Numbered from the stretch's first letter, positions 3,896-42,832 are shown. The stretch: 51,955 nt of DNA from a virus (IMGVR_UViG_3300037297_000097:1-51955); one strand, 5' to 3'. Numbers and translations are program-made. The notes: generated from the sequence alone by a model not told the origin.

Positions 3896-3897
3896 GC

Positions 3898-16540: not shown

Positions 16541-16553
16541 AGAACTCCACACG

Positions 16554-16578: not shown

Positions 16579-16602
16579 AGGATTGATGGGTTGTGTTGCT
16601 GG

Positions 16603-17553
16603 TCAGTCAGTAGCGGCGCGTTGCGATGTTATCATAGTATCAGGCAATCCAGTCAGTAAAAGCGGAATGGCAATCGGAAACACCGTTAACCACAATCGAA
16701 TTTCATTCCACTGTCCAAAATAGAACGCTACCATACCATAGGCCGGAACCAACCAGATGAGCCGTTTAATACGGCGCGGAATATTCCGATGGACCGCGCC
16801 GACAATCATCAGCAACCACAACGGTAATAGCATGGCATTGTTAATCAATGCGTCATCAAGGAATACCGTGAGTGAACGTGATAAAGCGCGCTCTGGTGGC
16901 GTTGCCATACGCGCCGGGCCAATGATCCATCGTAAACCGAAATAAACCGCCAATGATAACGCCAGATAGCACACAACCGTTTTCCAGTTGCGCCGATTGA
17001 TGCCATACATAGCGACATAGGCTACCGGCAGCAACAATCCGGTTGCTCTGTTTAGGCTCGCCGCTAACACCAATAATCCAAACAACCATGCCATCGACTT
17101 GGGACGTGACGGCAAACGCCACAGTGTCCACAATCCCCACGCCATAAAACAGACCTCAACGGGGGTATAGATCGCCCCATTGTAGGAGTGGCGGAATATC
17201 AGCGACATCGTAACGGCCATGATCGCAACACCGAGCAGCGCCCGTGACGTATCGTGTACCGCTTGCAGCCAGTTGAACAGCATACCATACATGACGCCAA
17301 AGACGACAAGGTGCGCTACCGTATACGCCTGCAAATAGCTGACCAGTGTGTGTAATGGTGTCAATGATTCCACCGCATAGGGTACAAGGATGCGATATTG
17401 AAATGGTGACGTAAACGTTTGGGTGACAGTTTTAATGTGCCAGGAATAGCATGTCTGATGACACACGGCCAGAACATCGTTGATGTAGTAGTAGGTGGTA
17501 AACAGCGTGACAATAACCAGTATCCCGACGATAGGTAACGTATTGCGCTTCAT
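16603..17553 (-). CDS. Polytopic integral membrane protein (8 or more TM helices)
   Basis: Repeated 18-22 aa hydrophobic segments throughout; SD AAAGGAG before the ATG; sits inside the tail gene block. Confidence 0.7.
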   Translation of the reverse strand: MKRNTLPIVGILVIVTLFTTYYYINDVLAVCHQTCYSWHIKTVTQTFTSPFQYRILVPYAVESLTPLHTLVSYLQAYTVAHLVVFGVMYGMLFNWLQAVHDTSRALLGVAIMAVTMSLIFRHSYNGAIYTPVEVCFMAWGLWTLWRLPSRPKSMAWLFGLLVLAASLNRATGLLLPVAYVAMYGINRRNWKTVVCYLALSLAVYFGLRWIIGPARMATPPERALSRSLTVFLDDALINNAMLLPLWLLMIVGAVHRNIPRRIKRLIWLVPAYGMVAFYFGQWNEIRLWLTVFPIAIPLLLTGLPDTMITSQRAATD

Positions 17554-24807: not shown

Positions 24808-25653
24808 TTAGCTCAAATCCGCTTCCGCCACTTCATAGAGCACCACAATTACCGCGTCGGTAGCTGGCGCTGCCACGAAAGTCAATGTTTTCCCTGATAC
24901 CGCGTATTCAGTGGTGATGGTTTGTTGAACATCATTGACAAACACGTAACACTTTGCGCCTGACACCGCCGTATAATCCAGATTAAAAACCGTTTCAGCA
25001 TTATCCCCGGTGAACCGCTGCATATGCAAAGGGTTGTCAGAATCAATCGGGAAAATAGACGCTGCGGTTGTGCCATGATTGGTTTCACTGACTGTTGACC
25101 ACCCGGTACGATCTGAACGCGATGCATTGATAGAATACTGATACGGTGTATGAGTGCGTTGTTCAATACTTGCGCCCAATGGTTTAATGGTACATCGTGG
25201 TACAAACAGTGACTCCCAACGCGCCACACCGCGCGTCCCGATTTGCCAGGACTTTGCGCGGCGAGACAAGAGTAAACACATTGTCTGACTGGCCCGGTCT
25301 TTGGGATCAAGCACCGACACTTCCGCATCACTGCTCAATACATTGACACTCGTGCCCTGAATCAATGCCTCGAAGGTGTTGTCACGCGCCGCCATTTCAA
25401 AAGCGCCTGAAGGCAGGTTTTCACTGTCAAACTCAAAGGACACCATAGGTTCGTCGTCACCAGTCACCACCTGAATATCAGGTTCCGGGATATTCAGGGG
25501 TAGCGTGCGTGCTCCATTAAGTCGGATCATACCACTACCATCTTGATCGCCTGCTGTGGGAGCCGTTGCTGTGCCGCCGATAAAGTAACCATCGCTATCC
25601 ACTACCCCGTAAAAGAGGTCACGGAAGCCCGCCGCAATTGTAGTTTTAGCCAT
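24808..25653 (-). CDS. Major tail protein with a C-terminal Ig-like domain
   Basis: Position upstream of the chaperones; beta-rich; C-terminal ~80 aa resemble an Ig/FN3 decoration domain. Confidence 0.6.
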   Translation of the reverse strand: MAKTTIAAGFRDLFYGVVDSDGYFIGGTATAPTAGDQDGSGMIRLNGARTLPLNIPEPDIQVVTGDDEPMVSFEFDSENLPSGAFEMAARDNTFEALIQGTSVNVLSSDAEVSVLDPKDRASQTMCLLLSRRAKSWQIGTRGVARWESLFVPRCTIKPLGASIEQRTHTPYQYSINASRSDRTGWSTVSETNHGTTAASIFPIDSDNPLHMQRFTGDNAETVFNLDYTAVSGAKCYVFVNDVQQTITTEYAVSGKTLTFVAAPATDAVIVVLYEVAEADLS

Positions 25654-25671
25654 GTTTTACACTCCTATAGG

Positions 25672-26145
25672 CTAGTAGACACTTCTCATGTAGGGCAGTT
25701 CAAAAGTGAACTCAACTCCTAATTGATTCGATCCAATACCGGCGTTCTGAAACACCACCAGCCCGGTATGCGATACCATACGCATTTCATAATGTAAAAA
25801 ATCCGGGGGGGCGGTGTAACTACCCGCGTCGGTTGTGAGCATCGGGTGAGTACGAAAATAGGTTTGTATATCACCAAGCCAATCAACTAGTTTGTCGGCG
25901 TTCTCGCCATGATAACCACTTTCAAGATGAGCAATCACAAACCGGGCCAACACCTGATGTATGTATTGCTGAATGTCTTCACCGAATTCACTATCATTGA
26001 GCGTCATTGTGCCTAAGCGGTTTGACCAGTACGGGAATGCCCCTTGCTGATACGGCCAGTATGGGGCAGCATCACACCCGGATACCGCCTCCTCCTCCAT
26101 TGCCGCGAATCGCGCCAGCATATCTTGCAGGTAATTACTGGACAT
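25672..26145 (-). CDS. Putative neck / tail terminator protein
   Basis: Synteny only. Confidence 0.45.
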   Translation of the reverse strand: MSSNYLQDMLARFAAMEEEAVSGCDAAPYWPYQQGAFPYWSNRLGTMTLNDSEFGEDIQQYIHQVLARFVIAHLESGYHGENADKLVDWLGDIQTYFRTHPMLTTDAGSYTAPPDFLHYEMRMVSHTGLVVFQNAGIGSNQLGVEFTFELPYMRSVY

Positions 26146-26989
26146 AACTGAACTCCGTTAACACGTTCAGTAATTCTGTTAATAAATCCTGTGGGTAGGT
26201 AATGATGCCAACGCCGTCTAAGGTTTCCACCTGGAACGCCCCCATACGGGTATAGAGCAATGCCGCCTGTCGCGCTGTAACCCGCCGAATACGCTCGTCT
26301 ACCCGGAACGTGGCAATGGCCGCGCCGTTGGTATGAGCCGCCGCTGTGGAACCATTGACACCCCTACGCACGGTCAACACGTTAGTTGTCGTATTGACGG
26401 CGGTTACATCTAACCATTCCGTGCCGATTTGGAGCATATGTCCCGGTGAGAAACGCGGCGTAAAGCCGTCTAAGTCTGCACCATCAGCATCAGCAACCGT
26501 GATACTGGTGACACTGGCATTGATACCCCCAACGTCTTGTACGGTGTCTACGGATTCCCATGCGTTATCGTAGTCATCGTGATACCCCCAGATACCCGTC
26601 ACGTAAAGTTGTTGCTTGAGTGTAGATTGTGTTGGATACCAATCATAGGCACTGTTCGATAACCAGAGCATCGTTGCCACTTCGTTGTCGAGGGTATACA
26701 ATTCTGTTGCGCTGGTGAGCGCGGTTGTTTGCTTGACAACGGCGGTCACATCCAAAATCGGCATACGCAATAGAAAGGTATTGAACGCTGTACTGATGCG
26801 GTCTGTCGTCAGTGGAAACGTGCGTTGTTCGATATAAGGTGCGAAGTAAGGCCGCTTTTTGGGCAGGTTCATGGTGCTGTCAATACGAGCACTCACCTGC
26901 TGAATGAACCGACGTAGTTTCGCGTCATCAAGTGCAGTCTCGGCTTTCAGTTCGCGCTTGGCATCGTCTAGTGTGCAATAATTGGTCAT
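26135..26989 (-). CDS. Putative head-tail connector protein
   Basis: Start moved to ATG 26989 (ATGA overlap); N-terminus MTNYCTLDDAKRELK resembles gp6-like connectors. Confidence 0.5.
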   Translation of the reverse strand: MTNYCTLDDAKRELKAETALDDAKLRRFIQQVSARIDSTMNLPKKRPYFAPYIEQRTFPLTTDRISTAFNTFLLRMPILDVTAVVKQTTALTSATELYTLDNEVATMLWLSNSAYDWYPTQSTLKQQLYVTGIWGYHDDYDNAWESVDTVQDVGGINASVTSITVADADGADLDGFTPRFSPGHMLQIGTEWLDVTAVNTTTNVLTVRRGVNGSTAAAHTNGAAIATFRVDERIRRVTARQAALLYTRMGAFQVETLDGVGIITYPQDLLTELLNVLTEFSYVQ

Positions 26990-27492
26990 AGATCGGTCAA
27001 TATCCCTTCCACCTGTTGCACAGCAGTATCCAACACCACACCCGATTGATACCAACCCGTGTCTTTGTGAAAACCCTGTTGATGGATACCCGTCACATAT
27101 TGCTCAACAGGTGACGGGTTCGCAATCCTTACGATTACATCTGACGCGGGGGGCGTGGGCGCGGTAGCGGCTGTCACTTTTGCCAGAAAATTGAGCAGCG
27201 CGATAAAGAAGCGTTCCCGGCGGGTAATCTGGTCAATATCGACATCGACTGCCCACTGTGCCACCAGTTTGCCAGTACGACGATACGGCAAGTTCCCCTC
27301 ACGTCGCAATTTCGCCATAACAAATTTACGCTGGCGCTCCGATGTCCACCGAATAGGATATTTCGGACTTCCGGGCTGTGTCTGCAATGTCGCTCGCGTT
27401 TGTGCCTGCCAGCGCTGTAACTGTGAGACCGTATCCCGTCGCACACGTGGTTTATCTTCTGTAACCGTAATGACAATCTCTTGGCTAATCAT
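26986..27492 (-). CDS. Putative neck protein
   Basis: Start moved to ATG 27492 (AATGATTAG overlap with the upstream stop); synteny only. Confidence 0.45.
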   Translation of the reverse strand: MISQEIVITVTEDKPRVRRDTVSQLQRWQAQTRATLQTQPGSPKYPIRWTSERQRKFVMAKLRREGNLPYRRTGKLVAQWAVDVDIDQITRRERFFIALLNFLAKVTAATAPTPPASDVIVRIANPSPVEQYVTGIHQQGFHKDTGWYQSGVVLDTAVQQVEGILTDL

Positions 27493-27781
27493 TGAGGCCC
27501 GCCCCTGTGTAACTCCGTAGCAGCATTCCCAAACCTGAAAAGGCAAACGGATACAAAAGTAAATCCAAATCCCAGAGCCACAGCAGCATAGCAAAGAAGC
27601 CAATCCATACCGACGTACAATAGATACAATCAAAAAGGCCGCCCATTTTGAGCGACCTTAGTTTGGTCAGCATATCGAGTGGCCCGGTTTCCGTTACCAG
27701 CATGTGGCTAATGCGCCACGTGGCAACAGACAGGACAATGAGGTCAAGTGCTGTCAATGAAGGGACTCCATATCCGATCAA
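27485..27781 (-). CDS. DUF1360-like small membrane protein
   Basis: SVATWRISHMLV ... FDCIYCTSVWIGFF matches the DUF1360 pattern; three hydrophobic helices. Confidence 0.6.
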   Translation of the reverse strand: MIGYGVPSLTALDLIVLSVATWRISHMLVTETGPLDMLTKLRSLKMGGLFDCIYCTSVWIGFFAMLLWLWDLDLLLYPFAFSGLGMLLRSYTGAGLND

Positions 27782-28832
27782 TGTTCCAGGTCGAATGGTT
27801 GCCGTTCTTTTCCCATACCGGATGTTGTACCTCGATCCCGGCTAATTCTCGAAAGATGGGCGGTTCACTGAATGTCATGTAATTGTAAACACTGCGTACC
27901 GTTTCGGAGATAGTGAACTGCGGTTGCCATCCTAGTTCCGACATGGCGCGGTTGGCGTCGGGGTACTTATCGGCAGCTTCCGTGTAATGCGGCCCGTAAA
28001 TGGTGACTGGATCAACGTGGCTTATCTCACCATGTCCAACAATTTCAATGACCGTCTGTGCCAAATGATTGATGGTGGTTTTGTTATCGGGATTGCCAAT
28101 GTTGTAGGCTGTTCCCGTCTTCCCGCATTGCGCGGCCTGGATAATTCCGTCTACGATGTCGTACACGTGAGTAAAGGCTCGAATCTGTGTGCCGTCACCA
28201 AACACTGTTAACGGTAGCCCCGTCATCGCTTGCGCCACAAAACGCGGCAACACAAAACCGCCTTTACCCGACTGGCGCGGGCCTGAGACATTGAACGGGC
28301 GAATAATCACGGCATCAAGCCCGTGCAGGCGACATTGATTGATGAGTGCGGTTTCCGCTGCCAGTTTGCCGACGGCATACTCAAGTCGTATGGTGGTTTC
28401 CGCCTGGATCATGCGTGGCATGGTCTCACTGCAATATCCCGCCTTGCCCCCGCCATAAATCTCAGATGTACTGACATCGATCAACCGGCATTCACAGCGT
28501 TTAGCAAGATCAATAAGCGCCATTGTATCATGCAAGATATGATGCGCCATGACACCGCCATGTTGCAAAACTCCGGCAGGGCCAACCGGCGCGGCCAGAT
28601 GATAGATGATGTCCCATTTGGCCTCAGGCCGATTGGCAAGCCATGTATCAATGGGCGCGATTTCATAGGTCAGATTGGCGGGGTGATTTAAATCATTGAG
28701 CAACACTTCAACGGGAACTGGATTGCTACTCAGATCATCAACGATATGCACCTGATTATCCGGGTTGTCGGTTAGCTGTTTGACCAGATGCCCACCGATA
28801 AACCCCGCGCCACCGGTTACGAGTATATTCAT
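27744..28832 (-). CDS. NAD-dependent nucleotide-sugar epimerase/dehydratase (extended SDR)
   Basis: N-terminal MNILVTGGAGFIGGHL Rossmann motif; catalytic YxxxK as YAVGKLAAE. Confidence 0.85.
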   Translation of the reverse strand: MNILVTGGAGFIGGHLVKQLTDNPDNQVHIVDDLSSNPVPVEVLLNDLNHPANLTYEIAPIDTWLANRPEAKWDIIYHLAAPVGPAGVLQHGGVMAHHILHDTMALIDLAKRCECRLIDVSTSEIYGGGKAGYCSETMPRMIQAETTIRLEYAVGKLAAETALINQCRLHGLDAVIIRPFNVSGPRQSGKGGFVLPRFVAQAMTGLPLTVFGDGTQIRAFTHVYDIVDGIIQAAQCGKTGTAYNIGNPDNKTTINHLAQTVIEIVGHGEISHVDPVTIYGPHYTEAADKYPDANRAMSELGWQPQFTISETVRSVYNYMTFSEPPIFRELAGIEVQHPVWEKNGNHSTWNIDRIWSPFIDST

Positions 28833-29065
28833 GAGAAATCCTCTCTTAGAACAAATTCCTCAATGCCGCCGACGCGCGGCCATACTTTTAAATGTTTCCG
28901 CTTTATCAAAACAGCAATAGCGCTCCACTGTACAGGGATAACCTCGCCATTCGTTCGCTTTAGCTGATAGCGGATTTTTTTAGTCCACGAACCCCCTACC
29001 CAATGTGATTTTAATGTCGCGCCTTCTCGCATTTCAGACAACAGTTCGTCAGCATTCGGCTTCAT
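28829..29065 (-). CDS. Hypothetical protein
   Basis: 78-aa ORF with ATGA overlaps on both sides. Confidence 0.5.
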   Translation of the reverse strand: MKPNADELLSEMREGATLKSHWVGGSWTKKIRYQLKRTNGEVIPVQWSAIAVLIKRKHLKVWPRVGGIEEFVLREDFS

Positions 29066-30804
29066 GCGCTTTTATCCTTTTCCAATCGCGCAACGACATC
29101 AGTCAATAATTGCCGCATACGCGCCGGGTAAGTATGCCGCTTCATACACAGCTTATGCGCTTGGCTGGCGATTTTCTTGCGTTTGGCCTCATGCTCTGGC
29201 TTTAGCCAATAGCGGATTTTCTGTTTCAGGTCGTCGTAATTGTCCCACGTGTCATAATGAACGCCCTTGCGAAGACCCATCAACTTACTAAAACCCTTCG
29301 TTTTCTGATGCAAGATCATTCCACCATTGGCAATGAGGATGTCAAAAAACCGCTTGCTGACATAGCCTGTTGCACAAAATTCGTTATCGGAAATCACTAG
29401 TTTGGCATTATGATTCAAGCTCTGCGTCTGGTCAAAGTGCCAGAACGTGTTACCAGTGGCACGGGGATCATTCTGTTGTTCGCAATAAATCCCCACGTCA
29501 ATATTTTCGGCGCGTAGGTCATGTAACGCATCAGCCAGCTTTGTCCGGTGTCCACATTGCGCGGCGCGGCGGTGCAAGTTACCCTGGAATACCACATCAT
29601 GCGCGGGCATCACGGGGTAATTCTCATATTCCTCTGGGCCAGACTGCCAATAATACGCATGGATGCCAACCTGTTTACAGGCGTCTACCATATCCGCATT
29701 GACAACCAATAACCCATCCATTCCCGCCCATACCTCACGCCAGGGTGATTCGGTATGGTAGCGCGGCCAGACATCCCCAATCCAATTGAGCCAGATTGCG
29801 CCCGGCGCGGCGCGGCGTATCCGGTTGATTTCATCGGGTGTCAGCAAGTGGGGATCATGGATGTTAGACAGAATCAAATGGGGCTGTAACGCCCATGATG
29901 CGCGTGTCAGCTTGTGAACAATCTGATCATCGTCTTTGTAGAGATGTTCCCAGACAATTCCACAATCGGCCACCGCATTCTTAAACGCCGGTTTTGCTGT
30001 CTCCCAGTGGGGCACACGCCGAATGTAATCATTCACAAATAGAATGCGAAGTTCTTCGTCATGTGGATTCGGGACTTGAGGGCTACCCGGATAGCGCACC
30101 TCTGGTTTAGGTTGATTCGGGTTGCCATATTCACGCACACGGGTTTGTCTATCTTTCAGATTCACACTGCGCTGGTAATGAAACGTGTCGTCTTTGACCA
30201 CGTAGGCGACGTTCTCGACACCGGGCACTTTGTCCACCGTATACCCACGCATATAAATTTCATAGCCTAACGCATTGTCCCCGGCATACGTCCAACAATC
30301 GGTCATCTTGCCACGCCCGCCCCACCAATCACAGGCATTGCCCAGCCATGTACGCAGCATCGATGTTTGTGGATAATTGACCTGCATTAACTGACCATCA
30401 GGCCCCCAAACATTTTGCTGGTCATATCCATCTAACCAGCGATCCTCAAATTGAATAGCCCCACATTCAAGATGGGTCTCCAAGTAGGATATGGCACGTA
30501 CAATGGCATATGGCGGGAATGCGCAATCATCGGTTGCAATGAGGGTGTATTTCCCCTTTGCCGCGTGTCCGGCCTCGGTCAGTGCCTTAACACCCCCGAC
30601 TGCCTTTCCCATTTGAATGAGTCGACAATCCGACTGTGCTTCAATCCACTCCGGCGTACCATCTGTTGAGCCGTTGTCGGCCAGTACAAATTCATAACGT
30701 ATGGTTGACGGTACGGTTTGGCGTACCGACTCCACCATACGCTTGAGACCCGCAAGCCGGTTGATGGTTCCAGAACAAATTGAAAGCGTGATGTCAGTCT
30801 GCAT
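29062..30804 (-). CDS. Two-domain glycosyltransferase (N-terminal GT2, C-terminal CgeB/Glyco_trans_1_2-like)
   Basis: ITLSICSG...FVLADNGSTDGT...ATDDC is GT-A/GT2-like; the C-terminal FFDILIANGGMILHQK...HTY region is CgeB-like; start moved to ATG 30804. Confidence 0.75.
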   Translation of the reverse strand: MQTDITLSICSGTINRLAGLKRMVESVRQTVPSTIRYEFVLADNGSTDGTPEWIEAQSDCRLIQMGKAVGGVKALTEAGHAAKGKYTLIATDDCAFPPYAIVRAISYLETHLECGAIQFEDRWLDGYDQQNVWGPDGQLMQVNYPQTSMLRTWLGNACDWWGGRGKMTDCWTYAGDNALGYEIYMRGYTVDKVPGVENVAYVVKDDTFHYQRSVNLKDRQTRVREYGNPNQPKPEVRYPGSPQVPNPHDEELRILFVNDYIRRVPHWETAKPAFKNAVADCGIVWEHLYKDDDQIVHKLTRASWALQPHLILSNIHDPHLLTPDEINRIRRAAPGAIWLNWIGDVWPRYHTESPWREVWAGMDGLLVVNADMVDACKQVGIHAYYWQSGPEEYENYPVMPAHDVVFQGNLHRRAAQCGHRTKLADALHDLRAENIDVGIYCEQQNDPRATGNTFWHFDQTQSLNHNAKLVISDNEFCATGYVSKRFFDILIANGGMILHQKTKGFSKLMGLRKGVHYDTWDNYDDLKQKIRYWLKPEHEAKRKKIASQAHKLCMKRHTYPARMRQLLTDVVARLEKDKSA

Positions 30805-31333
30805 AATAATCCACCAAGAATTGTCCCAGAAACTTAAGCGTTGAAATGATGTCCCCACGCGCACAGTTTGGATATTTTTCACGCAAGTCTTTCGGTGAAA
30901 GCCTTAAGCTCTTTTCCCCTTCGTCCAAACACCATTTGATGTGATGTTCATCAAAATTGTCATCGCTCAAAACAATGTGCCCCGGACCCCATTCGGCGTT
31001 TGGATATATCGCAAGAAAGCTATTAATATCCTGTTGCATCTGCTGTTTCCGCCGTGCTTCACTGTCGGGCAGCGGGATGTTATGCGCCTCAAAAAAAGTT
31101 TCTATCCGGTTGAGTAAGCAATCCCGCTTATGCTCGCTATCCCCCTCTACACCACAATAAGTACAATAACAATCCGTAGGCCAGAAGGCATATTTACCCA
31201 ACCAGGGGTTTGCTTGCAATGCAGTGACAAGCAATTCAATCATGGCGTTGCGTTCAGTCTCAAATTCTTGAATACGTTTCTCAAGTTCTTCAATTTCAGT
31301 ATACATATCGGGTTCAAGTTCACCGGTCCACAT
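30794..31333 (-). CDS. Hypothetical protein; N-terminal half is a member of the CxxC...HxxxC family
   Basis: Coiled coil followed by CTYC...HKRDC, as in the 882 and 7528 products. Confidence 0.5.
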   Translation of the reverse strand: MWTGELEPDMYTEIEELEKRIQEFETERNAMIELLVTALQANPWLGKYAFWPTDCYCTYCGVEGDSEHKRDCLLNRIETFFEAHNIPLPDSEARRKQQMQQDINSFLAIYPNAEWGPGHIVLSDDNFDEHHIKWCLDEGEKSLRLSPKDLREKYPNCARGDIISTLKFLGQFLVDYYAD

Positions 31334-32357
31334 ATAATACCCTCCCCAACTCTACCAACCGCGCATAATCGGGCGCTATCGCATCGGCCAGTGTCGGCGT
31401 GTAAGGATTAGCAAGTACGGTTTCATTCATGAGCGTATAGCCCTCTATCGGCGTACTCTCCACTTTCGGCGGCGGGTTGATAATCCCCGACTGTATCACT
31501 GCATCAGCCAGCGCTGCAACGCCCGTCTTCTGGCCGTTGCCATTGTCGGGCTTAGCCACCTGCATCTTCTCGACAGCACGCCAGGAGCGCGGGTCACGCT
31601 CGATGTCACGTGGATCAACATAGGCAGTTTTGGGCCAACTCATACGGGGGTAACGGCGGCCTGTGGCTTTGCCCCGCACCACATGATTGCCCTTCCATCG
31701 CGCCATTGCCAATACATCGCCCGGTTGACGCTCCCCTTGTGGAATAGCAACCTCCGGCGACTGGTGTCCACAGCAACCCATTTTGTATGCGTACCTTTCC
31801 CTAAGCTGTAACTTGACATTATTCATCTGCCCCCATTGAATAGCCTGTTGGGAGCGTTGCCCATTTTTGGTGTAATGCACCAGCGGTTTGGCAACACGCT
31901 GGCCGCAAATGTCATAAAGCGCCGCCTTGAGAAACCAATCGGTATCTTCCATTGCGGCCAGCGTATGGTCAAACGGGCCAATGCGCCGCGCGTCGATAGT
32001 CAGAAGCAGCACATTGATAAGATGCCAATCGTCTTCATGGAGCCAGGGGTAATCGGTGGCCTCACGGTGGCGATCCTCAAGCCACCAATCCGTGTACGCA
32101 TAGACACCTTGCCGCACGGTTGGGATACAGGACTCTACGAAGTCCGGCTCTAGCCAGTCATCGGCGTCGCAGAACCCTACATATTCCGTGTCTACCTGTT
32201 TCAATAGTTCGTTGCGAATCCATCCTGGCCCGCGCTTATCCGTGTCCAGCATCGTGAGCGCTTTGGTAGGCACAGTCTGATTTTCAACAGCCTTTACCGC
32301 ACGGGGTAGCAGGGATTCATGGTGTGGAGCACACGGAATAATGATTGTGGCTTTCAT
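31320..32357 (-). CDS. Family 2 glycosyltransferase
   Basis: TIIIPCAPHH...AVENQTVP...GFCDADDW (GT-A fold with DxD). Confidence 0.8.
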   Translation of the reverse strand: MKATIIIPCAPHHESLLPRAVKAVENQTVPTKALTMLDTDKRGPGWIRNELLKQVDTEYVGFCDADDWLEPDFVESCIPTVRQGVYAYTDWWLEDRHREATDYPWLHEDDWHLINVLLLTIDARRIGPFDHTLAAMEDTDWFLKAALYDICGQRVAKPLVHYTKNGQRSQQAIQWGQMNNVKLQLRERYAYKMGCCGHQSPEVAIPQGERQPGDVLAMARWKGNHVVRGKATGRRYPRMSWPKTAYVDPRDIERDPRSWRAVEKMQVAKPDNGNGQKTGVAALADAVIQSGIINPPPKVESTPIEGYTLMNETVLANPYTPTLADAIAPDYARLVELGRVLYVDR

Positions 32358-32677
32358 ATTAAATCCAAGTCAGAGCGGTCAGTATGAAATAAGATGCTCA
32401 TATCATCAGGAGTGTCTATTATCTCCTGAGATGTATATCCGCTTTGTCGCAAGGCTGATAATATGGTATCCATCTGCTGTTGTTGATAGTTCCATGCTAG
32501 ACCCAATGGGGAAATATAGAGCAATGTACCCTTATCTGCATAGAAAGAATAACGTGTGAATTCTGCTGTCCGGGTACGCTGAACCTTCAACGACTCACCC
32601 CGCCGAATCGCCTCAAACAATCGCGCCGGGTTGCATTCATGCTCATACGGGAATAGGCATTCTGTGTTATCATTCAT
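32354..32677 (-). CDS. Hypothetical protein
   Basis: 107-aa ORF; its first 15 nt are identical to the start of the upstream gene. Confidence 0.5.
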   Translation of the reverse strand: MNDNTECLFPYEHECNPARLFEAIRRGESLKVQRTRTAEFTRYSFYADKGTLLYISPLGLAWNYQQQQMDTILSALRQSGYTSQEIIDTPDDMSILFHTDRSDLDLI

Positions 32678-32949
32678 GTGTCGCCGGTTCCCTCATGTCG
32701 TGTTGCGCCGGGCCAATTACTCCAGATAGAGGATGTTGTTCCGACAAAAGCATCATGGATTTCCCGTAAAGCCGCATTGCTACCACGAAAAGTAATATGA
32801 AAAGTTGAATTTAATAATCCCCAATGTTCACGCTCGGAATATTCCACATCATTGAGAAAACAATAATCACGTATGCTTTGAATACCGCACTTGCGATTCA
32901 AAACATTATAGCGCACGATCATATAGAGGGTGTTTGTGTTATCATTCAT
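32674..32949 (-). CDS. Hypothetical protein
   Basis: Start moved to ATG 32949 behind SD AGGAGG. Confidence 0.5.
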   Translation of the reverse strand: MNDNTNTLYMIVRYNVLNRKCGIQSIRDYCFLNDVEYSEREHWGLLNSTFHITFRGSNAALREIHDAFVGTTSSIWSNWPGATRHEGTGDT

Positions 32950-33075
32950 AAGGCTATGCCTCCTGTTAGGCGTAGAGCCGTTGGGTGTTTCCGCACCGCG
33001 AACGGCTTCAACTGGCTGAGGTGGGCGCAACGACAACCCACCTCAGTATAGCACAGTTTCAACCCAACAACAAGA

Positions 33076-34524
33076 CTACGGTTTGTAGACCGTATTACCA
33101 GGGCCGTTCGCGTAGAAACTGCTACCCGGCAGCGCGTTGCGGATTTCAGTCGTGAAGTAGTAGGACACGTTATCCAAGCGACCAGCCAGGAACGGCGTTT
33201 CCATAATCAACCGCATCTTGCAACCGAACTCGTATTCTTTACAGAGGCCGGTACTGTTGACGCCTGCAATCCAGAGGCCGTTATTCAGAATGGTGATATC
33301 ATCCGAATCGGCAAACCCTCGGAACTGCGTGGCATACTGATTATCCATCGGGAAATACTGAAGGTAGGTCAATTTCTGACCGTTCCAGGTGTCGGGCACC
33401 AGATAGATGTCACTGGTGAATGTGCCCGCTGCGTTGGTTTGCGGAATGCCCTCTGAGAAGACCACCGGATAGGCCACACCGTCAACCAGGAGGTATTGGC
33501 CCGCGATCATATCCAGCATCAGTTTTTGGGTTTCGGTTGCCATCGTTACCAGATTGTTTGCGCCGGAACCGGAGCACCGGTAACTGGCATAGTTGCAAGC
33601 ATATTCTTCGACAACGCGATGGAACGCCTCCTCACGCATCAAGAAATACCAGGATACGTTTGCCCCATAACCCATCTTGCGAGCACGATTGCGAACAGCG
33701 CGTACCAATTCGGTGATAGCAATCGTGATGTTGCGGGCACTGGCAGCGGGTTCGCTGGGGATGGTTGCTCCTACGTCCGCCCCAAAGGTGATAACCACGC
33801 TATCCATTGCCGCGCACGTCTGCGAGGTTTTCACATCGGTATAACCCGTCTTAATCATGCTGTCGATGCCGGTAAACTCGGATGTCCAGCCGTGTTCAGT
33901 GGCGGTATAGGCCTGCGAATTGTCGCCAGCCACACCCACAACATCGATTGTGCGTTCAAACTCGACGCCAATTTTCCACAGTTCGTAGGCCAATTGATCG
34001 CGTGTATCCACAAGGCGATAGAATAAATCCGGGATTAACGGATTCCGCATTTCAGGATTACTGAACCCCGGCATCACAGAACCGGGAACATCAGACCGAT
34101 TACGCAGTTGCCCGATTTCTGGCACGGCATTCAGTTGCGTTTTGACAAAATACTGCCCCCAGTAGAACGCCTGTTTACATTCTTTGGCGTTACCGACTTC
34201 CGGCGGATTATCACACCATGTTTCCGCGTTCGTTCCGCTGGCTTCCGTTTGCCCCAAGAGCACAGACAGCAGTTCTTCATAAAACTGACTGGCCGTCGGA
34301 GCGCCCAACGCCTGAGCAAACGAATAAGGCCGCGCCATTGCACTGTAGCGCTCTGGCCGTACACCGGGATAGGTGAACAACCCGAATTGTGTCGTACTGC
34401 CCTGGAACGGGCCTTGCAACGTCGGCGTATAGAGCGTCGTACTGGCCGGGTCGTGCTTTTCAGCCAGTCCCATCGCATCGCGCAGTTCTTTCAATTCTTC
34501 AATCGTGTATTGTTTGTCAGCCAT
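33076..34524 (-). CDS. Major capsid protein
   Basis: 482-aa ORF immediately after the prohead protease/scaffold gene; SD AGGAG. Confidence 0.75.
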   Translation of the reverse strand: MADKQYTIEELKELRDAMGLAEKHDPASTTLYTPTLQGPFQGSTTQFGLFTYPGVRPERYSAMARPYSFAQALGAPTASQFYEELLSVLLGQTEASGTNAETWCDNPPEVGNAKECKQAFYWGQYFVKTQLNAVPEIGQLRNRSDVPGSVMPGFSNPEMRNPLIPDLFYRLVDTRDQLAYELWKIGVEFERTIDVVGVAGDNSQAYTATEHGWTSEFTGIDSMIKTGYTDVKTSQTCAAMDSVVITFGADVGATIPSEPAASARNITIAITELVRAVRNRARKMGYGANVSWYFLMREEAFHRVVEEYACNYASYRCSGSGANNLVTMATETQKLMLDMIAGQYLLVDGVAYPVVFSEGIPQTNAAGTFTSDIYLVPDTWNGQKLTYLQYFPMDNQYATQFRGFADSDDITILNNGLWIAGVNSTGLCKEYEFGCKMRLIMETPFLAGRLDNVSYYFTTEIRNALPGSSFYANGPGNTVYKP

Positions 34525-34528: not shown

Positions 34529-35692
34529 CTACTCCTTTACCCTGACGCCCAAAACGGTTTTTTGTGGTTCACCACCATCTTCGAGAGATTTTTTAGCATC
34601 TTCGATATCCTTGATGGTGAATTTCGGCTTGCTGGCAACCGAACGCGGCGTTTCGCCAAGTTGCTTTTCAAGGGCTGCCATACGCTCCACAACGCCCACG
34701 ATCTCTTTTGCGTTTTCGGTCAACGGAGCCAGTTCCTTGAGGATGGTCAACGCTTCAATGGTCGCTTTCGCCACTTCGTTCATTTCCTCTTCACGGGCGG
34801 CATTGTCCAGCGCCAACGCCTTTACGGTTTCGGTCAGTTCGCGCATTTCCTCAAGCGGGATAGGCGACGCGTCGTCATCTTCGGTGTCGGCCATTTCTTC
34901 CATTGGCAATTCTTCGACAACTTCAGTAGCCGTACCCATCAATTCCGAAATGATCGTATTCGAGATTGCATCGCGCTTGCCTTCGTCATCGGTGATTTCA
35001 GACAGCAGTTCGACAATACGCGCCTGCAAATCTTCCACCAATCCTTTGACCCGTTTGTGGTCAAACTCTTTACGCGCCACGCCTTCGCTATCCAGCTTGT
35101 CGCGCACGTCTTCCAATGCCGCATCGATGGCTTTTGCTGTGTCTGTTTTCAGACCCAGAATTTCCATAACGCTGCGGCGTTTCGTCTTGACGGCATTGCT
35201 CATAGGTTCTCCTCCTATCACATTGCTTAACGTTATGCCGTTTGCCGCATCTTCAAGCGGCAGTGTTGACGTTTCTTTCTTCAGGATGGCACTGAACGCG
35301 CCGTCCTGTTCGTCACCTTTCTGGTAATAAAATCCAATACTTGCACCCCAGGGGATGGTATTCTTTTCAATGGCATCCCAGACGGCTTTACGACTGACCC
35401 AAATATCCGGCTCTTCCCCACGCGCCAGATTAATTCGTGCGTCAGGTAATTCCCGGCTGACTTCCAACAAAAACGGGCCGTGCATTTCTGCGGCAATAAT
35501 CTCGCCAATAGGATCGCCCCCATGCCAGAACAAATGTGGCGTTGGCTCGAAATGGTCAACATAGGCTTTGAGTGCCTTCTCTTTGACAATCTCGTCTTCT
35601 CTATCCTGGTAGCTGTTGCTGGCAATGAGCAGCATAAACCGGCGTTCACCGGCCTTGATAATCAGGGATTTGGTTCCAATGGATTCAGGCAT
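34529..35692 (-). CDS. Prohead serine protease (HK97 S78/U35-like) with a C-terminal acidic scaffold-like domain
   Basis: ASNSYQDREDEIV, LFWHGGDPIG and GASIGF resemble the U35 His/Ser motifs; C-terminal half is an acidic coiled coil. Confidence 0.65.
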   Translation of the reverse strand: MPESIGTKSLIIKAGERRFMLLIASNSYQDREDEIVKEKALKAYVDHFEPTPHLFWHGGDPIGEIIAAEMHGPFLLEVSRELPDARINLARGEEPDIWVSRKAVWDAIEKNTIPWGASIGFYYQKGDEQDGAFSAILKKETSTLPLEDAANGITLSNVIGGEPMSNAVKTKRRSVMEILGLKTDTAKAIDAALEDVRDKLDSEGVARKEFDHKRVKGLVEDLQARIVELLSEITDDEGKRDAISNTIISELMGTATEVVEELPMEEMADTEDDDASPIPLEEMRELTETVKALALDNAAREEEMNEVAKATIEALTILKELAPLTENAKEIVGVVERMAALEKQLGETPRSVASKPKFTIKDIEDAKKSLEDGGEPQKTVLGVRVKE

Positions 35693-37655
35693 GTTTCCGC
35701 CTCACAAACCGCACCGCACGGAAGCGCCCACGCGCTGGGGCATCTGTTGGTTCCAGGTGGCATTTACAACCACCATTACAAATAAGTTTTTTCGCTTGTG
35801 GCAAAAACCCCGCTTTGATGTAATCTTTCATGCGGTGTATCTGGCCGTTGAGCTTCAAACAGGATTTACAATGTTCGGCCAGGACATTGACAACCCACAG
35901 ATAGCGCTTGTTGGCGGCGGCATACGCCAGTCCTTCGTAGTACAGCGGGTTTACGGAGTTGGCAATCCAGAGATCGGCACGGCGTTGCAACAGCGCGAGC
36001 GACATGGCTTTGCTAAATATCTCATCCATGAACTTGCGAATAAAAGGCCGCTGTTTGGCCCGCCAGATAGCAATCATGGCGCGGTGGTCATCGTTGAGTT
36101 GTCGCTCCGCCCCACCCGCCTCAAGGCCGTCCAAGAGCGCTTCAGACCCGGCCTCAACCAATACCAATCGGAACGCGGGCGCGGCAACGGCCCGTGATAA
36201 AGAGCGTGTCTGTATTTCGCCCACCAAATTGAGGAACTGCGCTTTAAAGGCGCTCTGAGTTGCCACCAACATCTTGGCCGCTTCGTCGGTGTCGTCAACA
36301 ATGGCTTGTTGGGGCTGCTGTGGCGCGGCTGTTAGCTGTGGACGCGCCTGCTCTGGCGTCTTCGGGTCAGCATCGGCCACACGAATCACATCACCCGATT
36401 CGTCGGTGATAACATCACGAACCGCCTCTACCTGATTTGCAAGCAACCGCCGCCGCTCATCGGCACTCAACTCGTCTGCCAACGACAGTACGGTCTGTGT
36501 CCATGTTGCCGCCATGTCCGCTTGTTGCTGGTCTTCTTCTTCGTCGCGCCATTGGAACTCGAATTGCAATTCGCGCGGCAACGCCTGATTAATCATCCGT
36601 TCCAGCGTTTTGTAGAGATAGCCTAACGCTCGCCCTTTGGACTTTTGCGCCAGCACTTCAGATTGCGTACCAGAACCAAGTGTGTTTCCGGTCAATTCCC
36701 ACATATCTTGAATATCCAGGCCAATACCGAGTGCAATCTCTTTGACGTTCAGTTCTTTGTAGGCGGTGTAATCGAATTTTTCCGGCGGCGTGGAATACGG
36801 TACACTGGTAATCTCTGGTGTGGTATCCGCATGGAGTCCATACAATCGGACAGTACGCCCCCATTTGCCGCCAAAATCGGTCTGCTGTTCTTTGTCGAGG
36901 CGGCCAATGGCCTCCTGGAATGTTACCTCATTGAGGTTTTTGAAGATCATCAATCCAGGCGGCGCGTTGTCATCAAGCATTTGCTCAACATAACGATTCA
37001 TCAGCACGTCACGCCATACCGGAGCAACACAGCGCGATAACGCGCATTGTCCATAGGCATGGCTGTTGATAAAACTTTGCGGCATATCCACCAAACGGTA
37101 TACCCGTGTACGGTGCATGAAAAAGATGTCGCCCTCTTGGTTCATGTACACACACGGATATTCTGGGTCTGCCGTCGGCCAACAACGCAAACTATCCAGG
37201 ACGTTAAACCCTGAGATGTTACCCAATAGCGGCGTGTCCGATTTGCCCGGCCCCAACACCTCGACAAAGGCCCCCGCATCGTATACGCTAAAATCCCAAA
37301 TGACCTTACTTAAGAAAGACTCCCAACCAGCCCCAAAATCGCTATTCCACAACACCGTTTGATACAGCGGTACGCGATTCGATTCGCTGCCCGCATCGTT
37401 CTTCAGTTCCCAGGGTGTCGAGACAATGCGCTTGGTTAAGCCGGTGACGGCTGATTTAAACAGCGTGTTATAGTCATGATGAGCCAGTTGGTAGAGTTCC
37501 CATTCCCGTTGACGGGTACCGGGCGCGCTCAATAGCGGGCCACGCCATTGCGTATTGAGAAATAACGTTTGCGCCACATCGCCATCTTTGACGCGAGGGC
37601 GTTTGTCTACCGACTGTTGTTGTTGGACTTCAATAACGCGGTCTTCGGTTATCAT
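35685..37655 (-). CDS. Portal protein fused to an SPP1 gp7/Mu F-like head morphogenesis domain
   Basis: Position after TerL; the C-terminus EHCKSCLKLNG...LICNGGCKCHLEP matches the MuF/gp7 Cys signature. Confidence 0.75.
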   Translation of the reverse strand: MITEDRVIEVQQQQSVDKRPRVKDGDVAQTLFLNTQWRGPLLSAPGTRQREWELYQLAHHDYNTLFKSAVTGLTKRIVSTPWELKNDAGSESNRVPLYQTVLWNSDFGAGWESFLSKVIWDFSVYDAGAFVEVLGPGKSDTPLLGNISGFNVLDSLRCWPTADPEYPCVYMNQEGDIFFMHRTRVYRLVDMPQSFINSHAYGQCALSRCVAPVWRDVLMNRYVEQMLDDNAPPGLMIFKNLNEVTFQEAIGRLDKEQQTDFGGKWGRTVRLYGLHADTTPEITSVPYSTPPEKFDYTAYKELNVKEIALGIGLDIQDMWELTGNTLGSGTQSEVLAQKSKGRALGYLYKTLERMINQALPRELQFEFQWRDEEEDQQQADMAATWTQTVLSLADELSADERRRLLANQVEAVRDVITDESGDVIRVADADPKTPEQARPQLTAAPQQPQQAIVDDTDEAAKMLVATQSAFKAQFLNLVGEIQTRSLSRAVAAPAFRLVLVEAGSEALLDGLEAGGAERQLNDDHRAMIAIWRAKQRPFIRKFMDEIFSKAMSLALLQRRADLWIANSVNPLYYEGLAYAAANKRYLWVVNVLAEHCKSCLKLNGQIHRMKDYIKAGFLPQAKKLICNGGCKCHLEPTDAPARGRFRAVRFVRRKHA

Positions 37656-39037
37656 CTAAAATTCCATAATAGATAGCGGAGGGCATCACACAAATGGTCA
37701 TCGACTTTCAACGGTTTTGGCTCACCAGCATCCACAGTACGCGAGCGGTCATCGTAGCGATAGGCTTGTAATTCACGTATCAGGTTCACACAACGCGGAT
37801 GTATCTTGAGTAAACGCACACCCTGACCGTCACAGATAAACCGGCGTACCACCTTAATGCCGTCAACGATTTTGTGTGTCGCGCCGGCATTGATAATCCC
37901 CGCATCAGCCAAGCGGCGCCGCAATTCTGCCGCGCTGCTGTCTACCATTGCGAGTCGCGGTTTATGATAGCCACGCTCTACGCATTCACGTATCGAAGTT
38001 TCAGGCAGTTCTAACGTTTGATAGTATTCATCAAAGATATTGAAACCACCGTCGCCACGCTGTTGCGCCAACAAAAACGCGCGAGGATGATAGCCTGCTG
38101 TACCCGGCCCTTCCCCATGCGCGTAACCGTCATCACAGCCCCAAAACGTATGCCATGCTGGATTGTATTCAGCGTCGGGTGTGACGTTGTATTCCAGGGA
38201 GAAGTTGTCGTATACAGCGCCTTCGGCCTGTACCCACAATCCCAACCGGCCACGCTCATAGCGTACACCTGTCAGGTTATCCAGGTGACGCATGGTTTTG
38301 ACGCCTTGCGCGGTCAATTCACCGGCGTCGTCATAGAGCGCCGGATTATGTTCGTGCATCTGCTGGTACAGTTCCAGCTTGCCCGCTTGCGCCCGCGTTT
38401 GTATCCAGTGGCCCGGAAAAGAGGGGTTACAGTCACCCAACACCTGCGTAAAGTCCGTATTCCCCGCGCGCCCTGTAGCACGGCCCGTCAGGATTTCATA
38501 GGTATTGAGGTCTAACTCTTCAACCTGATTGATGTAGATAAAATCAAACTCGGCAGACAATACACTGCCGGGACGATCCAGTCCCTTGAGCAGAATCTCA
38601 CTGCCATTGCGATACATGTATTTCTCAGGCTTTTCGCCGCCATATTTTTGCACGGGGGATGCTGGATCATCAATGTCACGCTCTAGCACCTTGCGTTCAT
38701 AGGTCTCGCACGCCGACGCGACCAAATCTTTATAGACCTTGCGAATCCACAACCCTTTAGCATTGGGGTAATGGCACATCAACCAGTGAAACCATGCTAG
38801 CATCCCAAAAGTTTTCCCCGTCTCATACGGCCCATGCAAGATGATCTCTGACACATGGTTATGTACCATCTTCGCACACCCGCCACGCATGGGCGGCAAT
38901 TCATAGGGAACACCCCCCGCCCCCTGGCTAACCCCTAACCCGTAATCAATGAGTTCATCATCATCAACGTCACTGGATACGTTCGCTGTTGGCACGATCA
39001 ATGACACGTGACATGAACTCCTTTGGGTCTTTGCCAA
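37652..39037 (-). CDS. terL: Terminase large subunit
   Basis: Walker A GPYETGKT, Walker B-like DFIYINQVEE, C-terminal nuclease-like region; true start may lie downstream of 39037. Confidence 0.85.
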   Translation of the reverse strand: MAKTQRSSCHVSLIVPTANVSSDVDDDELIDYGLGVSQGAGGVPYELPPMRGGCAKMVHNHVSEIILHGPYETGKTFGMLAWFHWLMCHYPNAKGLWIRKVYKDLVASACETYERKVLERDIDDPASPVQKYGGEKPEKYMYRNGSEILLKGLDRPGSVLSAEFDFIYINQVEELDLNTYEILTGRATGRAGNTDFTQVLGDCNPSFPGHWIQTRAQAGKLELYQQMHEHNPALYDDAGELTAQGVKTMRHLDNLTGVRYERGRLGLWVQAEGAVYDNFSLEYNVTPDAEYNPAWHTFWGCDDGYAHGEGPGTAGYHPRAFLLAQQRGDGGFNIFDEYYQTLELPETSIRECVERGYHKPRLAMVDSSAAELRRRLADAGIINAGATHKIVDGIKVVRRFICDGQGVRLLKIHPRCVNLIRELQAYRYDDRSRTVDAGEPKPLKVDDHLCDALRYLLWNFR

Positions 39038-41191: not shown

Positions 41192-41398
41192 CTATCGTCC
41201 CTTAATCTCATCGCGCACCGCTTCCAACAGCGCGATTTCTTCGTCCGTGAAAAACTCTGGCCCTTCATAAAACGCCGCCCACACTATATCGAACAGCGCG
41301 TCCCGCTGCTCCGTCACCGCCGCCAGCTGTGCGCGGTAGGTTTCCTTGTCGGCTAATGCTTGCCGTATGCCGACGGCGATGTTCTTTTCGTAGGTCAT
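41192..41398 (-). CDS. Hypothetical protein
   Basis: 68-aa ORF with an ATGA overlap with the upstream methyltransferase gene. Confidence 0.5.
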   Translation of the reverse strand: MTYEKNIAVGIRQALADKETYRAQLAAVTEQRDALFDIVWAAFYEGPEFFTDEEIALLEAVRDEIKGR

Positions 41399-42216
41399 AA
41401 TGACTCCTCGCTTGCTAAATCGAATAGGGGTAATCCGGTCATATCATTATCCGACTTCACATGGCGCGGCTCCAGGATACTGGTTCGCAAGCGATCCCGC
41501 GCGATGGCGACGTATTCGGCGCTGGTATCACCCATGATGAAATGGCGCTTGAGATTACGCACCGCTACGCCAGTTGTGCCAGAGCCACAGAACGGGTCGA
41601 GAATGAGTTCGCCCGGTTGGGTGTAAGTTTTGATGAGATATTCGTAAAGGGCGACGGGCTTTTGGGTGGGATGGAGACCGGTTTCGTAAATATATTCTAA
41701 GACGCTACTTGGAACACGTAAATTAACATCAAAAGCCCTTCGGTGAGGAAAATTCACGCTACCATACGCATACCCTGTGTCTATACGCTTGTCCGGTTTG
41801 TATCCATATTTAGCGCGTTCCCTATCTTTTCGGCCAATTAAAATAGGATAATAATTCGGAGTACCGTCTGAGAAAACAAGAATATTTTCATGTTCCTTCA
41901 TTGGTTCAATTTTAGCATTTAGAAAATTTGACCCTCGGTTTTTCCTCCATACCCACTCATACCGAAACCACGCCAAATTACTACACACCAGAATACTCGT
42001 AAACGGTTGGCTTGCCGTCGTCACGAATACCCCGCGTGGCTTCAGTATGCGCTTGACCGCCTTCCACCATTGATCCAGATCAACCCGTGCATCCCACGAG
42101 CAGGCCGTCGTACCGTAAGGCATGTCAGTGATGATCGCGTCCATACTCGCGTCGGGCAGCGCCGCCATGAGGTCGAAGCAATCCATCTGATGCACACTGT
42201 CTAACTCAACGCTCAT
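41395..42216 (-). CDS. DNA methyltransferase (beta-class N6-adenine or N4-cytosine)
   Basis: Motif IV variant DMPY near the N-terminus, HPTQKP, and motif I FCGSGTT near the C-terminus. Confidence 0.85.
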   Translation of the reverse strand: MSVELDSVHQMDCFDLMAALPDASMDAIITDMPYGTTACSWDARVDLDQWWKAVKRILKPRGVFVTTASQPFTSILVCSNLAWFRYEWVWRKNRGSNFLNAKIEPMKEHENILVFSDGTPNYYPILIGRKDRERAKYGYKPDKRIDTGYAYGSVNFPHRRAFDVNLRVPSSVLEYIYETGLHPTQKPVALYEYLIKTYTQPGELILDPFCGSGTTGVAVRNLKRHFIMGDTSAEYVAIARDRLRTSILEPRHVKSDNDMTGLPLFDLASEESL

Positions 42217-42832
42217 AATGATCCACCGCTTTCGTCTCCGTTGCCACCGTCGCTATCGCCTCAAAAATATCCAACCCGTCAATCTCATTGCCCAAGCAAA
42301 ACCAGTTATCCCGCACCCGCCGCGCGAACAGTTCGCAGTACGGGCCATCGACAAGGCGCTCAATGCGATCTTGCGCCGCTTCCGGCTTCTCACTGTGGCG
42401 TGTCACTGGCGCAACGACCACCTGCGAAATATCTTTTGCCTTGCGCTTCGGGCTGCCCCAGGTAAACAGCAATACCAGTTCCGCATTGCCCCGTGTCCAG
42501 TAGCCGAGTCCCATTTTCCACACATCGGTAGACATGGGCTGTGTGAACCAGACCCCCGTGTGAGACTCGTTAATTTTCACCCACGTGAAGGCGACGGTCT
42601 TGTAGGTCAACCCCCACGCTTTCCCTAGCGCGATTGCCACGTCAAGCTTGGGCATGGTGGCCCACATGAATACAGCAGCGTCGGGTAGGAGTAGCGATTG
42701 AATGGGTAGTTCTGAGAGATTGCAATCGGTCAACAATGGATATTGAGACTCAGCAATTCGCGTAGGTACAGTCGCGCCGCTCCATGCCTCATATGTCCAG
42801 GGCGGATCAATGACAACCGCGCCAAATCTCAT
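42206..42832 (-). CDS. MT-A70 family adenine methyltransferase
   Basis: VVIDPPWTYEAWS (DPPW) motif near the N-terminus; about 200 aa, typical of phage MT-A70 enzymes. Confidence 0.8.
   Translation of the reverse strand: MRFGAVVIDPPWTYEAWSGATVPTRIAESQYPLLTDCNLSELPIQSLLLPDAAVFMWATMPKLDVAIALGKAWGLTYKTVAFTWVKINESHTGVWFTQPMSTDVWKMGLGYWTRGNAELVLLFTWGSPKRKAKDISQVVVAPVTRHSEKPEAAQDRIERLVDGPYCELFARRVRDNWFCLGNEIDGLDIFEAIATVATETKAVDHYER

Follow-up and report, generated by a model that had tools for sequence, protein, structure and literature searches.

The DNA analysed here, called the window below, is the whole 51,955-nucleotide viral stretch IMGVR_UViG_3300037297_000097:1-51955, and our subject is a module of sugar-related genes lying on its minus strand between a putative major capsid gene (33076-34524) and the first putative head-tail (neck) gene (26986-27492). 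A preliminary description of the region had named four such genes, and all four are present: a soluble glycosyltransferase (GT) of family 2 (GT2), here called GT2a (31320-32357); a 580-amino-acid (aa) protein joining a GT2 domain to a CgeB-like transferase domain, here called the fusion GT (29062-30804); an extended short-chain dehydrogenase/reductase (SDR) of 362 aa (27744-28832); and a DUF1360-like membrane protein of 98 aa (27485-27781). Hidden Markov model (HMM) searches and AlphaFold models confirmed the calls for the three enzymes. The small genes said to lie between the enzymes are real open reading frames (ORFs) as well, namely g120 (32674-33036) and g107 (32354-32677), which occupy the slot between the capsid candidate and GT2a, g179 (30794-31333) and the 78-aa g78 (28829-29065), all on the minus strand. 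All junctions of the module overlap and the operon runs through it without interruption, which places the genes within the late structural operon as described; the further statement that every junction is an ATGA overlap held at four of them (g120/g107, g107/GT2a, fusion GT/g78 and g78/SDR, each of 4 bp), the others overlapping by 8-38 bp, with 8 bp between the neck gene and the DUF1360-like gene. Since the module genes overlap within the structural operon, they would be expressed late, together with the virion proteins.

GT2a matched the Pfam family Glycos_transf_2 at 34.3 bits (cut-off 23.3) and PHROG 14775, annotated as 'glycosyltransferase', and has 69 homologs. Across 36 homologous sequences the motif DADD (aa 64-67) was invariant, which gives the enzyme its DxD motif (D64-A-D66-D67), EDTD (aa 137-140) was nearly invariant, and CCG, GDVLA and GRRYPR were also kept. 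The AlphaFold2 model (mean predicted local distance difference test, pLDDT, 83.6) showed a GT-A fold, a small five-stranded beta domain (aa ~205-262) in which GDVLA and GRRYPR are conserved, and a poorly ordered, flexible helical tail. The fusion GT matched PF00535 at 53.9 bits (cut-off 23.3) and PF13524 (Glyco_trans_1_2) at 47.6 bits (cut-off 25), and its model (pLDDT 92.8) consists of a GT-A domain (~aa 1-230) followed by a complete GT-B domain (~aa 250-580). Its ORF can be extended to a GTG at 30882, and the homologs begin at the ATG at 30804. At least 100 homologs with both domains were found on phage-sized contigs; over 30 sequences, down to 25% identity, residues in both domains are invariant, D92-D93 among them. 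The JGI labels on these homologs read 'glycosyltransferase involved in cell wall biosynthesis' and, for some, 'spore maturation protein CgeB'. By profile, DxD motif and modelled fold, GT2a and the fusion GT are assigned to the GT2/GT-A enzymes, and profile and modelled fold likewise assign the C-terminal half of the fusion GT to the CgeB-like GT-B enzymes.

The SDR matched PF01370 (Epimerase) at 141 bits and carries the motifs GGAGFIGG (aa 7-14), STSE (the T-S-E motif, aa 121-124) and YAVGK (YxxxK, aa 152-156). Its best solved relative is human UXS1, a UDP-glucuronate decarboxylase (E 4e-35), and the C-terminal domain of ArnA is also near. The Lys of DKYPD (aa 288-292) replaces a key Arg of UXS1/ArnA, whose position we take to be R277 in human UXS1 and R619 in ArnA, and close relatives of the SDR likewise have Lys. 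The protein also scored below every NCBIfam equivalog cut-off (92.7 against 294 for NF008872; 110 against 365 for TIGR01181, dTDP-glucose 4,6-dehydratase). Because of the replaced Arg and these scores, 'UDP-pentose synthase' is a best guess; the probable activity is that of a UDP-glucuronate decarboxylase giving a pentose donor, and we file the protein only as an extended SDR of UXS-like type.

Of the description of the fourth gene product as a DUF1360-like membrane protein, the membrane part stood, with about three transmembrane segments predicted, and the family match is borderline (21.9 bits against a cut-off of 21, over 25 residues only, with an uncertain start codon). The homologs carry precomputed DUF1360 matches rated 'weak' or 'faint'. 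A transmembrane scan gave about three segments for the family, and an alignment of eight sequences showed an invariant CxxC. In relatives the gene (91-107 aa) stands directly after the fusion GT and ahead of the neck genes. A promoter and terminator scan of the region returned no signal above chance. The strongest terminator-like hairpin in it, 11 pairs followed by a T run at 27635-27659 on the minus strand, falls within the DUF1360-like gene and is probably coincidental, because its bases coincide with codons of the best-conserved motif in that gene (LRSLKMGGLFDC).

The four small ORFs differ in composition from their neighbours, having a lower GC content (0.44-0.46) and a lower GC content at third codon positions (GC3, 0.41-0.46). 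No homolog of g120, g107, g179 or g78 was found in any of ~100 related loci; g179, which has no family match, is present otherwise only on an identical contig. They could be ORFans inserted recently, or might not be genes. The g120/g107 slot holds an HNH endonuclease gene or unrelated ORFs in relatives and looks like a homing-endonuclease insertion site. In the related locus L001 the HNH endonuclease gene lies at 11557-12219, between the capsid gene and GT2a.

Glycosyltransferase genes beside the capsid candidate in related loci

Related loci (numbered L001 onwards) were identified by searching IMG/VR and a metagenome collection with capsid alignments, followed by tblastn on each locus. Linkage was counted at E <= 1e-5, and, as GT2 domains cross-match, the counts show that some GT is present but not always which one. 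The results showed that a homolog of GT2a and/or the fusion GT adjoins the capsid homolog in 18 of the 19 informative IMG/VR, Logan and NCBI loci, the window included. Metagenome loci with at least 1.5 kb of sequence downstream of the capsid homolog had a GT homolog downstream in 26 of 28 cases; with L144 added, whose fusion GT stands between portal and capsid, the linkage is seen in 27 of 29 informative metagenome loci. Over both sets together, about 44 of the 47 loci with sufficient flanking sequence have a GT beside the capsid-candidate gene, a figure that is approximate, some contigs being in both collections. Even loci with capsid homologs of 21-28% identity keep the linkage. As a rule the GT follows the capsid gene immediately, GT2a being almost always the first GT after it, and in the most divergent branch (L101-L103 and L144) it lies between portal and capsid. 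Another very divergent branch (L104/L141) has a different fusion, of GT4 and GT2 (608 aa), followed by GT2a-like and DUF1360-like genes. The L109 locus, part of a much larger genome (a 108-kb contig, Logan SRR14194066), has a capsid homolog of 44% identity with 1065- and 1073-aa proteins encoded upstream; no GT was found within 10 kb of this capsid homolog, which makes the locus a natural case for comparison, and L131 was a second such case. A conserved C-terminal tail of the capsid protein was considered as a glycosylation-specific feature and rejected, since the tail also occurs in L109, which has no adjacent GT.

Gene order was equally informative about what is constant in the module. Two IMG/VR contigs whose capsid candidates are 83% identical to that of the window have the same gene order, and distant relatives (fusion GT 33-45% and capsid candidate 33-51% identical) are arranged as capsid (466-479 aa), GT2a, cargo where present, fusion GT, DUF1360-like gene and neck genes; no SDR was found in these distant relatives. 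GC and GC3 of the GTs and the SDR match those of the structural genes (GC 0.51-0.55). The linkage across relatives and this equal composition show GT2a, the fusion GT and the small membrane protein to be an ancestral, conserved core within the head module. The idea of an inserted island thus did not stand; only the SDR and the small ORFs vary.

The SDR is present only in the window and in its two closest relatives, L001 and L002, and is thus cargo of the window's own clade. In those two relatives the slot of g78 holds a PIG-L de-N-acetylase and an LpxD-like hexapeptide N-acyltransferase (L001 15422-16908; L002 15262-16736), the latter scoring 217.6 bits against the NF002060 cut-off of 207. This predicted enzyme pair implies that the N-acetyl group on an amino sugar is replaced by another acyl group, and the LpxD-like gene hints weakly at a lipid-A-making (diderm) host. 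Cargo of other relatives comprises Methyltransf_24/O-methyltransferase-like proteins, FkbM methyltransferases, a sulfotransferase and extra GT2 proteins. A recurrent module of ~260 aa, with one weak Glyco_trans_1_2 match, is fused to the C-terminus of GT2a in L107 (9539-11404) and L108 (9745-11508), stands as a separate gene just downstream of GT2a in L006, L092 and L094-L097, and is absent from the window's clade. Because every identifiable cargo gene belongs to sugar modification or glycan tailoring, the locus gives the impression of a constant transferase scaffold around which the set of tailoring enzymes diversifies.

The late operon and the rest of the genome

An exact 127-bp direct repeat is found at both ends of the window (1-127 and 51829-51955), which shows a circular assembly; the window is therefore a complete, circularly closed genome of ~51.8 kb, that of an uncultivated, siphovirus-like phage. 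One long minus-strand operon spans from ~39 kb down to 11.7 kb. It opens with the terminase large subunit (TerL; 37652-39037), identified by Pfam Terminase_3C and PHROG terminase matches, followed by a portal-sized protein of 656 aa (35685-37655; by size and gene order), a scaffold-like protein of 387 aa (34529-35692; by gene order) and the 482-aa capsid candidate, the upstream neighbour of the GT module. Past the module come four conserved, presumed neck/tail tube proteins, a tape-measure-like protein with a weak PHROG match and then tail/fibre proteins. The first neck gene marks the downstream boundary of the module, an order kept in relatives, and a tail tube candidate lies at 24808-25653 by gene order.

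The preliminary description had called the flanking genes major capsid and neck genes. These names fit the gene order, running from TerL through the portal-sized, scaffold-like and 482-aa proteins to the tail tube candidate and tape measure, and for that reason we regard the 482-aa protein, also by its size, as the putative major capsid protein; the neck genes are named by gene order alone. Profile evidence did not add to this. Searches of Pfam, PHROGs and PDB sequences gave no match for the capsid candidate, also when profiles built from 5 and 15 sequences were used, an hhalign comparison with the major capsid protein of the Streptomyces phage Dagobah returned 0.4% probability, and for the portal-sized protein, as for the candidate neck and tail-tube proteins (24808-27492), these three databases had no match either. 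In the 90% clusters the capsid-candidate family counts at least 262 members; at 50% identity there are 474 representatives, of which 148 have E < 1e-30. The family is wholly unannotated and known from metagenomes only. Against 50,697 GenBank phage records, tblastn found no homolog of the capsid candidate or of the fusion GT, and megablast of the window against GenBank phages gave no match. TerL is only ~30% identical to proteins of Thermobifida and Streptomyces phages and haloviruses, whose structural modules are without this GT module. By these comparisons the window appears to belong to a large phage lineage with unannotated structural proteins. A single contig scan with a generic GT2 motif returned unrelated cellular GT2 genes only, and no prophage or host. 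The genome has a GC content of ~52%; a high-GC actinobacterium is an improbable host. No tRNAs were found in the genome.

Other variable genes were seen outside the module. A polytopic protein with at least six transmembrane segments and no family match is encoded at 16603-17553 on the minus strand, between two tail genes, and in the close relative L110 the same slot (16517-17389) holds an unrelated, N-terminally anchored GDSL-like hydrolase; the slot is thus a second variable cargo site, with envelope-acting genes, within the tail module. Upstream of the packaging genes, L002 encodes a transporter of the Vut_1 family (putative vitamin uptake; 4265-4897) and L001 a 534-aa polytopic membrane protein with no family match (2552-4156). 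At 41395-42832 on the minus strand of the window, two genes for DNA methyltransferases, one of the N6_N4_Mtase and one of the MT-A70 family, lie side by side with an 11-bp overlap and adjoin a 642-aa Toprim-containing replication protein.

Possible functions of the module

The reading to which we give somewhat better than an even chance is cytoplasmic glycosylation of virion proteins, most likely of the capsid, with a glycan that diversifies among relatives. Late in infection, soluble GT2a and fusion GT in the cytoplasm, which together supply three catalytic domains, would build a short glycan on a virion protein from nucleotide sugars, the likeliest acceptor being the capsid protein encoded just upstream. 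In the window's clade the UXS-like SDR would add a donor, probably UDP-pentose made from UDP-glucuronate. Relatives would swap the tailoring enzymes, so that the glycan would differ between phages while the core transferases stay. Virion glycosylation was also favoured in the preliminary description, and what now backs it is the linkage, across the lineage, of GT genes to the capsid-candidate gene within the morphogenesis operon, which we hold to be the strongest discriminating fact. A transmembrane scan found no segments in GT2a, the fusion GT or the SDR, and Pfam searches of the complete genome detected no lipid-carrier gene, initiating phosphoglycosyltransferase, flippase, polymerase, Wzx/Wzy or GtrA/GtrC-type partner; soluble enzymes without such genes fit direct glycosylation in the cytoplasm. 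The tailoring cargo, which resembles the mycobacteriophage cassettes of GTs and O-methyltransferases, and the multidomain GTs of giant viruses, the closest viral structural analogues of the fusion GT, also fit glycosylation of a virion protein. A further structural analogue is a glycosyltransferase of mycobacteriophage Che8 (Q855A2), and the same reading is favoured by a GC and GC3 equal to those of the structural genes and by the lack of an integrase among the matches to the genome.

Several points weigh against this reading. Both the glycan on a virion protein and its acceptor are proposed here from the genes, and the putative capsid identity of the 482-aa protein comes from synteny, the HMM searches having given no match. 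Peripheral GTs acting on lipid-linked envelope precursors are also without transmembrane segments, so solubility does not discriminate. The PIG-L and LpxD-like cargo of relatives is typical of envelope pathways, the fold likeness to the Che8 glycosyltransferase is that of a generic GT-A domain (16% identity), and three loci (L109, L130 and L131) have no GT beside the capsid gene in the available sequence. Finally, it is not obvious what the conserved CxxC membrane protein would do if proteins are glycosylated in the cytoplasm, and it is mainly because this protein is left unexplained that we keep two alternatives involving the envelope or a membrane-associated product.

In the first of these, which we consider unlikely, the module would modify a host envelope glycan late in infection (lipopolysaccharide, teichoic acid, capsule or exopolysaccharide), with the GTs working at the inner membrane face on lipid-linked precursors and the small membrane protein serving to anchor them or as their partner. 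Readsorption or superinfection would thereby be blocked, or release be aided. The conserved protein of three transmembrane segments after the fusion GT would then have a place, pathways for envelope polysaccharides typically contain combinations of GT2 and GT-B domains as well as SDR, PIG-L and LpxD-like enzymes, and the JGI wording on cell wall biosynthesis, though generic, points the same way. Other slots of the late operon also hold envelope-acting cargo, as the polytopic protein of the window and the GDSL-like hydrolase of its relative illustrate. Known conversion genes sit near lysogeny genes, and a linkage of GTs to the capsid gene across the lineage, persisting where most other genes are unrecognisable, is unexpected for host conversion. 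The genome-wide Pfam searches detected no integrase, in addition to the export and initiation genes named above, and the GTs are without membrane segments. The polytopic protein at 16603-17553, which had been cited in favour of an envelope role, does not help it: it is not conserved among relatives, and with an unrelated hydrolase in the same slot of a close relative it appears to be independent cargo. It was rejected as a component of the system.

The second alternative is a product without covalent attachment to virion protein: an oligo- or polysaccharide, free or associated with the membrane, or a glycolipid. It might serve, for example, as a matrix or help assembly at the membrane, with the DUF1360-like protein as organiser; or else the alternative is that the DUF1360-like gene is simply unrelated to the GTs, as it may be a holin or exclusion gene. 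We regard this group of explanations as quite improbable. Foldseek comparison of the GT-A domains returned K4CP, RmlT, PmHS2, ppGalNAc-T2, SpsA (1qg8) and TarS, and that of the fusion GT-B domain (aa 250-580) returned PglA, HepE and the mycobacterial mannosyltransferase ManT. K4CP and PmHS2 are bifunctional polymerases, and a two-domain enzyme resembling them could make a repeating disaccharide, to which the LpxD-like N-acyltransferase of relatives could add an acyl chain; the conservation of the membrane protein also favours such a product. However, all these matches are generic GT-A and GT-B likenesses with TM-scores of 0.25-0.39, no export machinery was found by Pfam in the genome, and the linkage between GT and capsid genes would be left unexplained. 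For the same reason Foldseek did not assign a specificity to the GTs. As to the holin reading, searches for lysis genes in the genome found no recognisable lysis cassette or endolysin and a LysM match only.

Phage GTs often modify DNA, and a reading in which the phage DNA is glycosylated, with pentose from a donor made by the UXS-like SDR, was also weighed. Pentose on cytosine is known in the Shewanella phage Thanatos (PMC12838424). Within the sensitivity of Pfam, the complete genome has no dCMP/dUMP hydroxymethylase, thymidylate-synthase-like, C5-methyltransferase or TET-type gene, and its only modification genes are the N6/N4-type methylases at 41395-42832. Moreover, the GTs lie in the head operon and not with the replication genes, and most of the relatives in which the GTs persist have no SDR. 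We consider DNA glycosylation highly improbable.

Glycosylation of virion proteins thus remains our preferred reading, and it can be extended, tentatively and with more doubt than belief, to the whole uncultivated lineage (a capsid family of ~470 clusters at 50% identity): head glycosylation would have been fixed as a step of morphogenesis, and the fast-swapping tailoring cassette of methyl-, sulfo- and acyl-transferases and pentose synthase, flanked by the conserved GT pair and the small CxxC membrane protein, would be a virion 'serotype' locus. If this extension is true, no earlier case lies outside the actinobacteriophages, and phage surface glycans would be under selection in the environment. 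Virion glycosylation at the locus, if true, would by itself extend glycosylated virions to a large uncultivated lineage without a match among GenBank phages, in which the transferases are not optional accessories but have stayed with the capsid gene over a long evolutionary history. The lineage, with its swappable tailoring genes, would then be a natural experiment on why phages diversify their surface glycans, candidate reasons being particle stability, adhesion to matrix or mucus, evasion of recognition by hosts or grazers, and avoidance of readsorption. For protein glycoengineering, the compact set of soluble enzymes, with its three GT domains and one enzyme of nucleotide-sugar metabolism, could be tried out in E. 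coli. Should the module modify the envelope instead, it would be an unusual conversion system, expressed late and linked to the capsid.

Comparison with known systems

To our knowledge, experiments have demonstrated glycosylated phage virions for no more than a few mycobacteriophages, in which antibody recognition changes. Giant viruses glycosylate their capsid proteins in the cytoplasm with their own GTs and nucleotide-sugar enzymes. When the fusion GT was compared with viral models, the closest were multidomain (GT-A and GT-B) and YkvP/CgeB-like GTs of giant viruses (chloroviruses, mimivirus relatives and marseilleviruses); the likeness is at the level of fold only (8-16% identity), and those viruses belong to another realm and have another capsid fold. 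GT2a met many GT2s of uncultured phages among the viral models, and at rank 11 the GT-A fold of the Che8 glycosyltransferase Q855A2 (E 2.4e-8, TM-score 0.44, 16% identity; a fold-level match only).

According to papers citing Freeman et al. 2023 (PMC11256854, PMC11600133, PMC12363180), the GTs of mycobacteriophages Che8, Corndog and Myrna are thought to act in the cytoplasm on capsid and tail tube subunits. The mycobacteriophage capsid/tail-tube glycosylation cassettes pair GTs with an O-methyltransferase (PMC11600133, PMC12363180). The module studied here shares with them phage-encoded GTs with intact catalytic motifs and, in related genomes, O-methyltransferases. On homology to the transferases Che8 gp110 and Corndog gp38, the comparison gave the fold-level match to Q855A2 only. 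The module differs from these systems in a core made of a GT2 and CgeB-like fusion plus a small membrane protein, in a genome GC of ~52% and in that glycosylation is read from the genes. It also differs in position: the genes of the module lie between capsid and neck throughout the lineage, whereas in the F1 phage Maravista, close to Che8, the GTs are near the 3' genome end (PMC11256854). The precedent that had been invoked, of actinobacteriophage GT genes beside capsid and tail genes, was not confirmed.

Among cellular systems, the spore crust of Bacillus subtilis offers a likeness in its SpsA, CgeB and CgeD proteins, which decorate a self-assembled protein shell (PMC13317609). The C-terminal domain of the fusion GT is of the Glyco_trans_1_2 family, and SpsA was among the top GT-A matches; this is family and fold resemblance, not orthology. 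The SDR shares with human UXS1 and ArnA the Rossmann, T-S-E and YxxxK motifs, and departs from them in the Lys at the Arg277/Arg619 position and in the equivalog score given above. The GtrABC systems of prophages, responsible for O-antigen glucosylation and seroconversion, also combine a phage GT2 with a small membrane protein. In contrast to them, GT2a and the fusion GT have no transmembrane anchor, the small protein is DUF1360-like with three segments and not GtrA, neither a GtrC-type GT-C nor an integrase was found, and the genes are in a late head operon and not near attachment or lysogeny genes. Functionally the module would be most like mycobacteriophage virion glycosylation and giant-virus capsid glycosylation, and at the sequence level it is a member of neither. 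Its core order of GT2, GT2 and CgeB-like fusion and DUF1360-like gene, set between capsid and neck, is distinct from the known systems.

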